Source of the DNA: Escherichia coli
GTDB lineage: Bacteria > Pseudomonadota > Gammaproteobacteria > Enterobacterales > Enterobacteriaceae
NCBI RefSeq assembly: GCF_050320075.1
Contig: NZ_CP190018.1
Direction: 5' to 3' (one strand)
DNA length: 64,000 nucleotides
Of this stretch, positions 1,968 through 53,922 are shown one piece after another; within the stretch, counting starts at the first letter, position 1, and every line of letters begins with the position of its first letter. The position numbers and the translations under genes are program-made. The notes beneath the pieces were generated by a model. It was not told the DNA's origin. It did no database searches and was given only the letters and a program-made list of their open reading frames with translations.

Positions 1968-2261
1968 TAGTACAAATATTTAAACCAGTGTAGATTCAGG
2001 GATACGCCACAGCAAGAAATAGTTTACTTATTCCTCATTTTGTCGACTAAAAATCGACATTAAACAAAAAATTCAAACTTAATCACTTTCGGGAAAAATG
2101 TGACAAATATATGCTCGGACTGGTTGCGGGGAGCGTGTAACATGGATACAAATCAAAATTATTGCCAGCCTCACTGATGGATTACTGGTGTCAAGAGCCC
2201 CCCTTCGGGCATGAAACGGCTGGCTAATTCTGTACAGACTGTAATCTAAGGACGATAACGC

Positions 2262-5200
2262 ATGACATATCAGGCAATTTTCACTGGCTGGGATGATCTG
2301 ACGATTGAAGACCTTCTGGTCGCTTACCGGAAAGCAAAAGCCGATAGCTTCTTTGAGAATACATTTCCTGTTGCTATCAAATTTGCCGAGTATGAGCAGG
2401 AATTACTTGAAAACCTGCAAAAACTCTTAGATCTTTTGCAGAGCGAAGATGGATTCAGTAGCAATAAGAAGTTGATTGGCAAATTTCGATTGTTACCGAA
2501 AAAATTAACCACAAAGAAAAAACATGAATCCCAAAATGGACACGTCCACTTTTCTAATCCTAAACGAGCAGCCGACCATTTATTTAATAATTTTGATCTG
2601 ATACCAGAGTTTCGTATTATTGGTGACTTCCCGGTTGATAGTCACATTATCTCTGCACTATGGATTAACATGGTCGGGCATAAATTTGATGCCAGCTTAG
2701 ATAACTGTTGCTATGGCGCGCGGCTAAAGCGTATTCGTAATGATGAATTATTTAGCAATGAGCAGGATAATCCATTCCATATCAGTGCCGTGGGTTCTTT
2801 TAGCCCCTACTTCCAGCCCTACCAAAAATGGCGTGGTGATGGCTTAAAAGCTATACGTGACGAGTTGGAAAAAGATCGTGACATTATCGCCGCCTCACTG
2901 GATTTAAAAAGTTACTATCATTTTATTGATCCACTGGCTATAACCTCTGATGATCTCTATAACACACTAAACATAAAACTGACTGAGGATGAAAAAGCGT
3001 TTACTGCACAGTTAGCAGTATTCTTAAAGCACTGGTCTGACGGCGCAGCGGCATTTGGAAAGAAAATAGCGTACAAAACACCTGTTATTAATGGTGGTCT
3101 GGTCATTGGATTAACAGCCAGTCGGATCATTTCAAATATATTGCTACACCATTGGGATAAATTAGTCATTGAAAAACTATCACCAATTCACTACGGTCGT
3201 TATGTCGATGATATGTTCCTTGTAATACGCGATACAGGGACAATTACTAATAATCACGAATTTATGTTATTGCTGCAAGATAGGCTTGGCAATGATTGCG
3301 TTTATTTGAAAAACGAGCAAAAACAAATATGGCAAATACAGCAGGGCGAGCATTTCCAGGGTAAGACCACCATCCAGTTACAATCCGATAAGCAAAAACT
3401 TTTCGTGCTTCAAGGGAGGGCTGGAATAGACCTGCTCGACAGTATCGAAAAGGAGATCTACGAGCTTTCTAGTGAACACCGCTTGATGCCTTCACCGGAT
3501 CAACTGGAACACTCCACCGCAGCTAAAGTCCTTTCCGCTGCCGGTAGTGTAGGTGAAAATGCCGATACTCTGCGCCGTGCGGATGGATTAACCATTCGTC
3601 GTTTGGGCTGGTCACTGCAATTACGCTACGTTGAAACACTGGCACGAGATCTGCCTCCAAGTGAATGGAAAGAACAGCGGGAAGAGTTTTATCAGTTTGC
3701 CTACAACCATATTCTTAGGGCTGATAATCTATTTGCACATTTTAGTTATCTGCCAAGGCTGCTTGGCTTTGCTATCAGTATGAATGAATGGCAGCACGCG
3801 GAAAAAATTGTACTTAAAGCTTACGAATCCATCAACCTGTTGGCATCGGTGATTACTTCAGGTAAGGAAGTGAATATAAATGGTTGCAAAACTCGAGCAG
3901 TAAATGATCTTTGGCGCTGTATAAAAGGCACATTAAGCTGGCTATTTGTTGATGCAGCGACACGATATTACAGTCCTGACAGATTATTTCTTGATAAACG
4001 TTCAAAGAAAGAAGAGTGCCTTGCGGATACATTTTTTAATCATATTTCACAAAGTCTGACGAATCTAAAGGATTTACTGGATCTTCGCTTTGATTCAGCA
4101 GATTTTTATTTAAAAGCGCCATTGGTAGCTCGAGCTGATTTAGCAAAGGAACCTTATAAACAGATCGTAAAGAGTCAGTCGGCAGAAAAACTTGTTAATC
4201 AGCGTGATAGTAAAAAAGAAGTTAAAATACTGAAATTAATGAGCGACTCATCGCTTATTGATATTGACGTTATTAAGCTATTTTTGAAATCAACCAAGAA
4301 TACCCGACTGGAAAAAGTGGCTAAAGGAAATCGTAAGAACGAAAGTTACCTACCTTACATTTTCCCTACACGTCCTTTAACACCCGCTGAAATATCAGAA
4401 CTGGCCCCCGAATGTGTTGGATTACCCTCCACATCCGACAAAAAACCAGATGAGAGACCGTCCACCATTTGGGCAAAATATACTCAAGCATTACGCGGAG
4501 TATGGATCAAACCGACGTTGCTAGCATCGGAGCAGGACTCAGATGAAGCGACAAAAAAAGCTCGGCCTAAGAAATTCATTCATATTGGCACAGACAGGAA
4601 ACATAAAGTTGTCGTTGCGCTAACCAGCATTAAAACAGAGGAGGACGACTGGGCTAAAATGGCCTGCAATAAATCTAACTTGTCCCGTTCAAGGTACCAG
4701 CGGATTTCTGAACTGGTTAATGCAACATTGAAACTATCTCCTAAACCTGATTATGTTTTATTCCCTGAGCTTTCAATCCCGTTACGCTGGGTTAACAGTA
4801 TTGCTGATCGTTTGAGTTCGGCGGGTATCAGTCTAATTGCGGGAACAGAATACCGCCACTTAGACGATAATCAACTGAAGAGTGAGGCCGTACTTGTCCT
4901 TTCAGATAACAGACTCGGCTATCCAGCGAGTGTCAAAATATGGCAACCCAAGCTGGAACCCGCCGTAGGTGAAGATGAGGCATTATTTTCAATTTATGGT
5001 AAGTCTTGGGATTCGACACTTAATGTTAAACAACGTAAGCCGGTATATATTCATCACGGCGTCAATTTTGGCGTTATGATTTGCTCTGAACTCCAGAATA
5101 GTAAAGCGAGGATCCGTTTTCAGGGCGCACTCGATGCATTAATGGTATTGAGCTGGAATAAAGATCTAGATACGTTTGCATCGTTGATTGAATCAGCAGC

Positions 5201-52731: not shown

Positions 52732-52786
52732 GCAATAGTACGATAAAGAGGCCCCATGCTCTTGATGGGGCCTGTAGCAACTAGCG

Positions 52787-52870
52787 TTATGGACGCTGGT
52801 TTACGTACTCAATGATCGCTTTGATAATCGCGAACATCGGCGGCACGATTTTGAACAGTAAGTTAACCAT
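52787..52870 (-). CDS. 27-aa hydrophobic peptide (candidate type I toxin)
   Basis: MVNLLFKIVPPMFAIIKAIIEYVNQRP. GAGG SD 6 nt upstream of the ATG. Convergent with the early operon. Too short for the ORF track. Confidence 0.35.
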   Translation of the reverse strand: MVNLLFKIVPPMFAIIKAIIEYVNQRP

Positions 52871-53117
52871 AACAGGCCTCACTTAGTTTTATCGCGCCTA
52901 GCTGCAAATACCTTTGGGCTTGCCTTTGCAGTTGCAATATCTGTAGTCGCCAGATACTTACGGCACGATTTCGAGTTAAGGTAAGGTTTTAGAGTCACCA
53001 AAAACCTGGACTTAAATCTTCTTTGAGAACAACGATGTTTAGTAAATGGTCATTATTACCTGGTATGACCACTCAACGTTTCTTGATGAATCCAGTACAT
53101 TCGGTTAATCTTAATTC

Positions 53118-53170
53118 AGTCGCCAGATACTTATGGCTCAGGAACAGAGCCGCAAACTCTGTTTCCTTTT
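53118..53170 (+). ncRNA. Candidate sRNA whose 5' end is complementary to the peptide-mRNA leader
   Basis: ttgatg -17 nt- taatct promoter-like sequence at 53083-53111. The 16-nt agtcgccagatactta (also at 52945-52960) sits at the predicted 5' end. Ends in the ggaacagag/ctctgtttcc hairpin plus TTTT. Confidence 0.3.
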
Positions 53171-53201
53171 AAAAAGCCCAGCCTAGTCAACTGGGCTTTT
53201 T
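53171..53201. terminator. Bidirectional hairpin terminator
   Basis: The aaaaagcccag...ctgggcttttt stem is flanked by A5 and T5 runs. Confidence 0.6.
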
Positions 53202-53496
53202 AATGTCTATTTTTAACCCAATGAACCTTCAATACCGTAACATCAGTGTCTTGCGAATTAAGATAGTGTGTATAGGTTATGCATGCAAGTACATAACTCT
53301 GTGGATAACTCAGGAAGGAAAAAGTAGCTCCCGCGCAATTTAGGCCAGACAAGGCTTTCGCAAAAGTCAACAGAGAGAAAAAATTTGTTAAAAATAACGT
53401 TTGTTGGAATTGTATATATTTATGCCTTTCAATAGTTAGCATCTTATTAACATCTTTTTTAAGAGATAGAGTTCAAAAATATATAGCTTCAACATA

Positions 53497-53516
53497 TACT
53501 GTATGTGTATACAGTA
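53497..53516. promoter_or_regulatory. LexA (SOS) box
   Basis: tactgtatgtgtatacagta is a perfect TACTG-N10-CAGTA palindrome, 17 nt upstream of the umuD'-like start codon. Confidence 0.85.
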
Positions 53517-53532
53517 TTAAGAGGCGAGTATT

Positions 53533-53922
53533 ATGGGCTTCCCTTCTCCTGCGGCGGATTATGCTGAGAGCCGTATTTCTCTTGATCAGCAGATAATTAG
53601 ACATCCTTCAGCGACCTACTTCATGAGGGCAGCTGATAGTCATCATCGTGAGGGAATATTACAGGGTGCATTGCTGGTGGTCGATTCCTCACTTACCCCG
53701 GTTGATGGTTCTCTGCTTGTATGCGCTCTGGATGGGGAATATCGCGTAAAAAGATACCGGAAGTATCCACGTCAGCATCTGGAGGATTTAAGAACCGGTA
53801 AGAAGGAAGCATTGCCAAAGGATGACGATGGATGCACGGGCAGCAATGCCGTGTTTGGTGTGATCACTCACATTATCAACGACGCAAGAAGTGGCGAGTT
53901 TGATGATTGTCCCGTGATGTAG
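53533..53922 (+). CDS. UmuD'-like S24-family protein lacking the N-terminal cleavable arm
   Basis: 129 aa beginning MGFPSPAADY, i.e. at the residue after the UmuD Cys24-Gly25 cleavage site. DS (Ser) and VKR (Lys) align with UmuD Ser60/Lys97. No umuC in the window. Confidence 0.75.
   Translation: MGFPSPAADYAESRISLDQQIIRHPSATYFMRAADSHHREGILQGALLVVDSSLTPVDGSLLVCALDGEYRVKRYRKYPRQHLEDLRTGKKEALPKDDDGCTGSNAVFGVITHIINDARSGEFDDCPVM

Follow-up and report, generated by a model that had tools for sequence, protein, structure and literature searches.

In a 64-kb stretch of Escherichia coli DNA (contig NZ_CP190018.1; the whole stretch is termed here the window), which corresponds to a chromosomal prophage adjoining tRNA-Thr and proA, an 801-bp gap between genes (positions 52732-53532) very probably contains a type I toxin-antitoxin-like module: a small RNA of 84 nt, encoded on the plus strand, appears to repress a conserved membrane-type peptide of 27 residues, encoded on the minus strand. 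With less confidence, the peptide is taken to be toxic and the module to serve phage-plasmid maintenance. Two features of the type I class are present in silico--namely, a small hydrophobic peptide gene with translation signals and an RNA gene whose product is predicted to pair with the peptide mRNA. An initial annotation, made from the letters of the window, had proposed at this place a toxin-antitoxin (TA) module of type I or a membrane peptide regulated by a small RNA (sRNA), and this proposal now draws computational support from conservation of the peptide, conservation of the RNA gene, and covariation between the 5' end of the RNA (its seed) and the leader of the peptide mRNA.

The gap lies between a 208-aa open reading frame (ORF), on the side where a lambdoid/P22-like early-left operon (ERF, anti-RecBCD, Ead/Ea22) ends, and an S24-peptidase (umuD'/humD-like) gene; its measured length agrees with the noncoding interval of about 790 bp between operon and umuD'-like gene that had been described before. 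It is 100% identical to the corresponding sequence of NZ_CP071954, and none of the records among the matches listed, RefSeq E. coli genomes included, carries any annotation within it. The loci compared below come from plasmids of Escherichia, Citrobacter, Enterobacter and Klebsiella and from viral contigs; a search with a pattern taken from a leader hairpin added 28 viral contigs and one Citrobacter genome contig, which brings the total to 33 distinct loci.

A conserved peptide gene

The small ORF on the minus strand is a real gene, to judge by its conservation, and has been kept as a peptide family over four genera. In the window it comprises 27 codons (MVNLLFKIVPPMFAIIKAIIEYVNQRP; 52787-52870, with ATG at 52870-52868 and TAA at 52789-52787) and is preceded, at a distance of 6 nt and just as first annotated, by the Shine-Dalgarno (SD) sequence GAGG (52877-52880, minus strand). 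A terminator scan predicts a rho-independent terminator hairpin for the peptide mRNA at 52749-52773, with a T-rich tail on the minus strand. Each of the 33 loci has an SD sequence (GAGG or GGAGG) at equal spacing, an ORF of 25-28 codons and a terminator of its own; at the equivalent place past the stop codon every homologue has a GC hairpin and a T run, though of differing sequence. The family consensus is M-x-x-L-L-L-K-x-x-P-P-x-x-V-I-I-x-x-x-I-x-Y-x-N-x-R. Ratios of nonsynonymous to synonymous change (pN/pS, from Nei-Gojobori counts) range from 0.05 to 0.6 and mostly from 0.1 to 0.35, and synonymous divergence between genera is close to saturation.

The encoded peptides are hydrophobic and strongly amphipathic, with a grand average of hydropathy (GRAVY) of 0.86-1.5; the window peptide has a value of 0.86 and a 15-residue maximum of 1.88, which places it within the range of LdrD and under DinQ and TisB. 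None of the Pfam, NCBIfam and PHROG models matches it (NCBIfam at E ≤ 10). A HMMER scan with the 31-aa form against 1.84 billion representative proteins, complemented by an exact-sequence look-up, yielded two clusters: the peptide itself and an over-extended call of another variant. A literature search likewise found no paper on this peptide or locus.

Two paralogous peptide types, A and B, occur within the family. The window has a single A-type ORF and loci L003 and L006 a single B-type ORF (MFLLLLKLAHPVAVIIMTLLEYWKDR), while in Enterobacter, Klebsiella and most Citrobacter loci (L004 at 2240-3140, L005, L007, L008, L009 and L012) both types occur in tandem, the B-type first (MQMLLLFLKLAHPVAVIIMTLLGYWKDR) and the A-type second (MVSLLLKILPPLVAIITTIIDYINKR), each with an SD sequence of its own but served by one leader and one small RNA.

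Predicted pairing between the small RNA and the peptide leader

A 16-nt repeat had been reported at two places within the gap. The 16-mer AGTCGCCAGATACTTA is indeed found at 52945-52960 and 53118-53133, and nowhere else in the window even when two mismatches are allowed (chance expectation 0.04); its length, on the other hand, was underestimated, for the repeat extends over 20 nt (52945-52964 and 53118-53137), and the single C/T by which the two copies differ reads as G·U once the RNAs are paired. The second copy forms the predicted 5' end of the plus-strand RNA, and the first, read on the minus strand, forms its predicted target site within the peptide mRNA leader, 75-94 nt upstream of the AUG. 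That the 5' end of the RNA pairs with the leader, as initially annotated, accords with a predicted 20-nt duplex that covaries between loci. The predicted energy of the window duplex is -40.3 kcal/mol, as against -21.7±2.9 kcal/mol for shuffled seeds, and cognate duplexes across loci range from -39 to -52 kcal/mol.

Each locus has its own seed-leader match of 20-26 nt, and at least 10 sequence variants of this match occur. With seed and target concatenated for 10 distinct variants, pairing extends to 96.3% of cells, and compensatory changes are seen in 9 of the 24 pairs; none of 500 shuffles attains any of the five measures applied, and in slid registers the paired share drops to about 30%. Locus L009, from Klebsiella, is one in which seed, target and the opposite strand of the target hairpin have changed together (GUUAAC/GUUAAC). 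Within positions 1-20, moreover, all differences between the two copies are transitions that give G·U and never A·C, an asymmetry that argues for selection on RNA pairing rather than on DNA identity, and against gene conversion of a DNA repeat. Judged by these substitution patterns, seed-leader pairing is under selection. Repeats and ORF are also conserved together, as the initial annotation had expected of a genuine system: all 33 loci have both the peptide ORF and a seed-leader match.

The same repeats might, instead, be sites that act at the DNA level (iteron-like or operator-like), or a duplication homogenized by gene conversion, with the RNA complementarity being incidental. Consistent with this, the copies of every locus are direct repeats some 150-180 bp from one another, and in some plasmids replication initiator genes lie near the locus. 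Yet the start of one copy coincides with the predicted +1 of a conserved promoter, and a stem-loop and terminator, likewise conserved, come after it; the differences between copies preserve pairing in RNA, as just described; the target copy covaries with a third segment, which forms an mRNA hairpin (locus L009); and the locus lies far from rep genes in pLF82-type plasmids and occurs in chromosomes as well. Against these points a DNA-level role is extremely improbable.

The small-RNA gene

The plus-strand RNA gene, as its pattern of conservation indicates, is real. A sigma-70-type promoter (53083-53111, plus strand), with hexamers TTGATG (53083-53088) and TAATCT (53106-53111) separated by 17 nt, ends 6 nt before the repeat. 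This promoter had been part of the initial annotation, and its hexamers and spacing are retained in homologues: every one examined has TTGAnG, a 17-nt spacer, TAAnnT, a 6-nt discriminator and then the distal copy of the repeat. Because this arrangement recurs 6 nt ahead of the distal repeat in all loci, the RNA is predicted to start at about 53118. The candidate antitoxin (53118-53201, plus strand; about 84 nt) consists of the seed (53118-53137), a stem-loop (53141-53166) and a bidirectional terminator (53171-53201), and its homologues, of 81-86 nt, share the layout of some 20-23 unpaired nucleotides followed by stem-loop and terminator. Eight of its structural pairs have changes on both sides (that is, compensatory changes). 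The fold of the 86-nt window RNA has an energy of -33.4 kcal/mol (z = -5.8 against shuffles), and a covariance model built for the new family gives the window RNA 100.7 bits.

Both hairpins past the second repeat were seen initially, and both are present (53141-53166 and 53171-53201); what does not hold for the family is the RNA of about 53 nt then predicted. In other genera it is GAUUGAAAG, not a run of U's, that comes after the first hairpin. Since relatives have no U run there, and since both hairpins are conserved, the family-wide product is predicted to end at the second hairpin, at about 84 nt (53118-53201), and a 53-nt RNA was rejected as the family-wide form. In the window's own sequence, which has UUUU at this point, some termination at the first hairpin is possible.

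Leader structure and a proposed mechanism

Sequence and comparison indicate that the leader of the peptide mRNA is structured and at least 130 nt long; its consensus fold derives from an alignment of 13 sequences. Conservation on the toxin strand starts just upstream of a 5' stem-loop (SL-A; 52984-53007, minus strand), which has the conserved loop UUGGUGAY and three pairs with compensatory changes. Next, on the same strand, comes an element A (UCGUGCC; 52962-52968), which extends into the target site at its 5' edge and pairs with an element B (GGCGCGA; 52892-52898), upstream of the SD sequence, to form the closing stem of the leader; its seven pairs are kept in the 13 sequences, with changes that are one-sided only. 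Enclosed by this stem are two hairpins. The first (52937-52957, minus strand), GUAUCUG-GCGACUA-CAGAUAU, is supported by compensatory changes in the consensus fold and is the target hairpin, its loop GCGACUA being the complement of the small RNA's extreme 5' end. The second (52902-52931, minus strand), CUGCAAA-(16-nt loop)-UUUGCAG, has a stem that is invariant in 33 of 33 loci and that also served as the search pattern for further loci.

Element B is able to pair with a third element as well, namely element C (AAUCGUGCC; 52842-52850, minus strand), which lies inside the ORF. An 11-mer that had been noticed both beside the first repeat and within the ORF marks these elements: CGGCACGATTT occurs at 52841-52851 and at 52961-52971 (chance expectation 0.07), so that A and C are two copies of one sequence, each complementary to B. 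A B:C pairing would enclose the SD sequence and the AUG, and in minimum-free-energy folds of single sequences B does pair with C, with SD and AUG enclosed and the SD sequence paired with codons 4-5.

These features suggest a mechanism in which the 5' end of the small RNA would first contact the loop of the target hairpin and then zip up into the 20-bp duplex. The duplex would invade the closing stem and displace element A from A:B, and element B, once freed, could pair with element C in the ORF, thereby enclosing SD and AUG. Alternatively or additionally, the duplex might block a ribosome standby site and attract RNase III, as in dinQ/agrB, zorO/orzO and tisB/istR-1. By either route translation of the peptide would be shut off for as long as the small RNA is made. 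Upon loss of a phage-plasmid the RNA, being presumably short-lived, would decay and the peptide would damage the membrane--that is, post-segregational killing, by analogy with dqlB/agrB and hok/sok.

Toxin or other membrane peptide

Several observations weigh against a type I TA-like module or against particular parts of it. First, B:C is paired in 79.8% of cells, compared with 26-60% in slid controls, and its covariation is not significant. Second, the GRAVY of 0.86 is to be set against 1.4-1.8 in DinQ, TisB and ZorO, and two prolines lie in the middle of the peptide. Third, neither Pfam, NCBIfam nor profile comparison matches the peptide to any known toxin family. Fourth, gene conversion could in principle account for the likeness of direct repeats, to which the G·U asymmetry is the sole counter-argument. 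Fifth, neither a consensus scan nor manual inspection revealed, at any conserved position, a convincing sigma-70 promoter from which the peptide mRNA might start: from the sRNA promoter to the leader the scan found none on the minus strand, nor did it in L003 and L004, and by eye there is an AATAAT at 53057-53052 with a poor -35 element and no hexamer pair whose aligned position is conserved across genera. The promoter of the peptide mRNA is the main gap in the model.

Some of these properties would also suit a small membrane protein that is regulated by the RNA without being a toxin or part of an addiction system, and that might, for example, modulate a transporter of the host or act in phage exclusion. 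The moderate GRAVY, a conserved PP or HP motif that breaks the helix, the lack of homology between the peptide and known toxins (models and profiles searched) and the persistence of the module in chromosomal prophages, where plasmid addiction is irrelevant, all point that way. Set against this are the full layout (divergent sRNA, long structured leader, tiny hydrophobic ORF and terminator), which matches that of dinQ/agrB, zor/orz and tisB/istR-1; the presence of the module on low-copy phage-plasmids, in some of which it adjoins rep genes; and the tight, constitutive-looking repression through a dedicated RNA that is typical for toxic products. A non-toxic role is therefore considered unlikely, and the TA-like interpretation is retained below.

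Relationship to known type I systems

The closest counterparts in architecture are dinQ/agrB of E. coli K-12 (Kristiansen 2016, PMC5066626) and dqlB/agrB, an addiction module of plasmid pOXA-48 that has been demonstrated experimentally (PMC12365149). Both share with the new locus a divergent, non-overlapping sRNA and ORF, each with a terminator; a hydrophobic ORF of 27-31 codons; and an sRNA of 82-88 nt with a single-stranded 5' seed, a stem-loop and a terminator. As in dinQ/agrB, the seed is predicted to pair with the 5' untranslated region (UTR) far upstream of the SD sequence, and the leader has elements that could pair in mutually exclusive ways (here A:B and B:C, both conserved as possible pairings, B:C with covariation that is not significant). 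Short motifs are shared as well: the SL1 loop GAGCCNCNAACUC; the leader segments TTYAAAGTCCWGG...GGTGGTGC of dinQ/dql, to be compared with ATTTAAGTCCAGG...TTGGTGAY here; and a loop GGCA(A)GUGUAAGAG. Furthermore, the leader hairpin loop of L003 and L006, GGCAAGUGUAAGAG, resembles the dqlB leader loop GGCAGUGUAAGAG. (The dql loci used in these comparisons were drawn from blastn with the dinQ leader.)

More formal comparisons bring out a weak similarity of the RNAs in both directions, but no membership. The match of the Rfam model RF02891 (AgrB) to the window RNA spans the full length but, with 27.6 bits (E 0.096), stays short of the gathering score of 40, and the model matches none of the diverged homologues of the window RNA at E ≤ 5; dqlB-linked RNAs, unlike the window RNA, score 47.8 and 57.9 bits on it. 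In the opposite direction, the new family's covariance model scores 18-21 bits (E 0.003-0.012) with its best matches outside the locus, which are AgrB, AgrA and an RNA linked to dqlB. The peptide matches neither NF041472 (DinQ) nor NF041473 (DqlB), NCBIfam models on which the reference DinQ and DqlB score 54 and 72 bits, and it lacks the IIVL...LELIR signature; hhalign of its profile against DinQ/DqlB gives a probability of 1%; and the leader profile, searched with nhmmer, matches neither the dinQ nor the dqlB loci at E ≤ 10. There are further differences: complementarity spans 20-26 nt and excludes the stem-loop, compared with 31-35 nt in dinQ/agrB; the new module resides in phage-plasmids and prophages, the dinQ/dql type in conjugative plasmids; some members of the new family encode two tandem peptides, unlike dinQ/dqlB; and no LexA box of the kind present in dinQ and tisB occurs on the toxin side, the sole perfect CTGT-N8-ACAG nearby (53499-53514) belonging to the promoter of the humD-like gene. 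Filing the locus as a dql member was rejected on account of the protein models, hhalign, the AgrB gathering score and the leader search, and, because every formal test of sequence membership in dinQ/dql failed, we read the locus, on comparative grounds, as a new family with dinQ/agrB architecture. That it shares a distant RNA ancestor with dinQ/agrB seems about as likely as not.

In zorO/orzO and tisB/istR-1 a divergent sRNA matches a long 5' UTR through about 18-20 complementary nt at its 5' end, the pairing site is about 100 nt upstream of the start codon, and the product is an amphipathic membrane peptide of fewer than 30 residues. The pairing architecture and the small amphipathic peptide of the new locus are like these, with no relation in sequence: the OrzO-P model reaches 34.2 bits, against a gathering score of 60, and only in L004, whereas IstR has no match; tisB, besides, is LexA-controlled, while the new toxin side is devoid of a LexA box. 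(For the zorO system, see PMC5397157.) More broadly, among Zor/Orz, TisB/IstR-1, ShoB/OhsC, Hok/Sok, Ldr/Rdl and Ibs/Sib there is no Rfam match at the gathering score and no Pfam or NCBIfam match. With the hok/sok system of plasmid R1 the module likely shares its role--RNA-antitoxin addiction on a low-copy extrachromosomal element--and, as in hok/sok, its mRNA would be held inactive through long-range structure; hok/sok differs in that its antisense RNAs overlap in cis, translation is coupled via mok, and Hok has about 50 residues, and no Rfam match to Sok was found here.

Distribution and genomic context

Of 5,426 complete E. coli genomes, 113 contain a 461-bp core of the module (52745-53205). 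They do so at 114 places, 105 of which are on plasmids of about 100-120 kb and nine chromosomal. The carrier plasmids are SSU5/pLF82-like phage-plasmids, and it is these, rather than the P22-like prophages suggested initially, that constitute the main home of the module in E. coli. The gap together with the humD-like gene is 99.6% identical to the corresponding region of phage Cyrano (pLF82; L002; PMC9928086); over window positions 52732-53922 the 390-bp S24-peptidase gene follows the gap in both, and the outer flanking genes differ. In view of this identity the block consisting of the module and the LexA-controlled humD-like gene was probably exchanged recently between a lambdoid prophage and a phage-plasmid. 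Diverged relatives are found on plasmids of Citrobacter, Enterobacter and Klebsiella, where they occupy large gaps devoid of annotation and have varying neighbors; some adjoin RepA/RepB, and the Citrobacter plasmid copies lie beside replication initiator genes.

The humD-like gene itself occupies 53533-53922 (390 bp). A perfect LexA box, CTGTATGTGTATACAG (53499-53514), overlaps its promoter-like TTCAAA-17-TATACT (53472-53500), and the 250 bp upstream of the gene are about 80% identical to the matching region of phages P1 and P7. Two further observations concern the distribution of related sequences. A contig labelled 'MAG: Bacillota bacterium' (L013; JAEWTL010000044.1) contains an E. coli-type module in which the seed is unchanged and the peptide almost identical, and is probably mis-binned enterobacterial or phage DNA. 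And some 40-60 nt past the small-RNA terminator the non-E. coli loci L004, L007, L009, L024, L025 and L005 share a short motif, AAATACTACATATAGGGG, or a variant of it such as CCACTACATGTAGTGG.

A second, convergent small-RNA candidate

On the minus strand, at 53171-53288, the family's covariance model finds a possible second small-RNA gene, apparently a degenerate inverted paralogue of the first (31.4 bits, E ~1e-5). It has a promoter TTGCAT (53288-53283)-17-TATCTT (53265-53260) and a predicted RNA at about 53254-53171, and it converges on the bidirectional terminator of the first small RNA. The E. coli-type loci that were aligned (the window, L010 and L011) retain its promoter and the first 16 nt of its RNA, GCAAGACACUGAUGUU; the covariance model detects it in L002, L013 and L031 as well, so far as E. 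coli-type loci go, and it was not found in other genera. No significant complementarity was detected between this candidate and the toxin mRNA, the first sRNA, the humD-like mRNA, the upstream operon or the rest of the window. An 80-aa ORF on the minus strand (53200-53442) overlaps the candidate; a single plasmid record (L010, 2959-3201) has the equivalent ORF annotated, under the name of hypothetical protein, and the ORF is probably not a gene.

The second candidate bears on yet another explanation of the first, namely that the main targets of the small RNA are other transcripts, in trans, of the host or of competing phages, and that its pairing with the neighboring leader is secondary or autoregulatory. 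Prophage-encoded sRNAs with targets in trans exist, which provides a general precedent, and the second, convergent sRNA-like gene of the E. coli-type loci does have a conserved seed of its own, for which no local target was found. For the first small RNA, by contrast, seed and adjacent leader covary in every lineage, a pattern to be expected only under selection for that very pairing, and the window offers the 16-mer no match beyond the two described. A predominantly trans-acting role is on these grounds highly unlikely; repression of the adjacent peptide remains the preferred function of the first small RNA.

Implications

Predicted cross-pairing between seed variants is weaker for some combinations, most clearly for the Klebsiella variant (L009), whose seed gives -38 kcal/mol with the E. 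coli leader as compared with -52 kcal/mol with its own. It is conceivable, if rather doubtful, that the variants (at least 10 seed-target pairs, partly orthogonal by predicted duplex energy) represent specificity classes for an RNA-based incompatibility or exclusion. Were this so, related phage-plasmids and prophages would avoid or exploit each other's antitoxin, and the tandem second peptide and the second, convergent sRNA would add extra layers to a contest between mobile elements. Whatever their role in nature, the seed variants provide ready-made compensatory mutants for exploring sRNA-mRNA specificity.

More generally, the module would add an unannotated family to the type I TA systems and would provide SSU5/pLF82-like phage-plasmids with a candidate RNA-controlled stability module. 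Such phage-plasmids, found in roughly 2% of the complete E. coli genomes, in some cases bear extended-spectrum beta-lactamase (ESBL) genes (PMC8085198). And the weak resemblance of its small RNA to agrB, combined with an unrelated peptide, suggests that in the evolution of type I systems an RNA scaffold may persist while the toxin is swapped.

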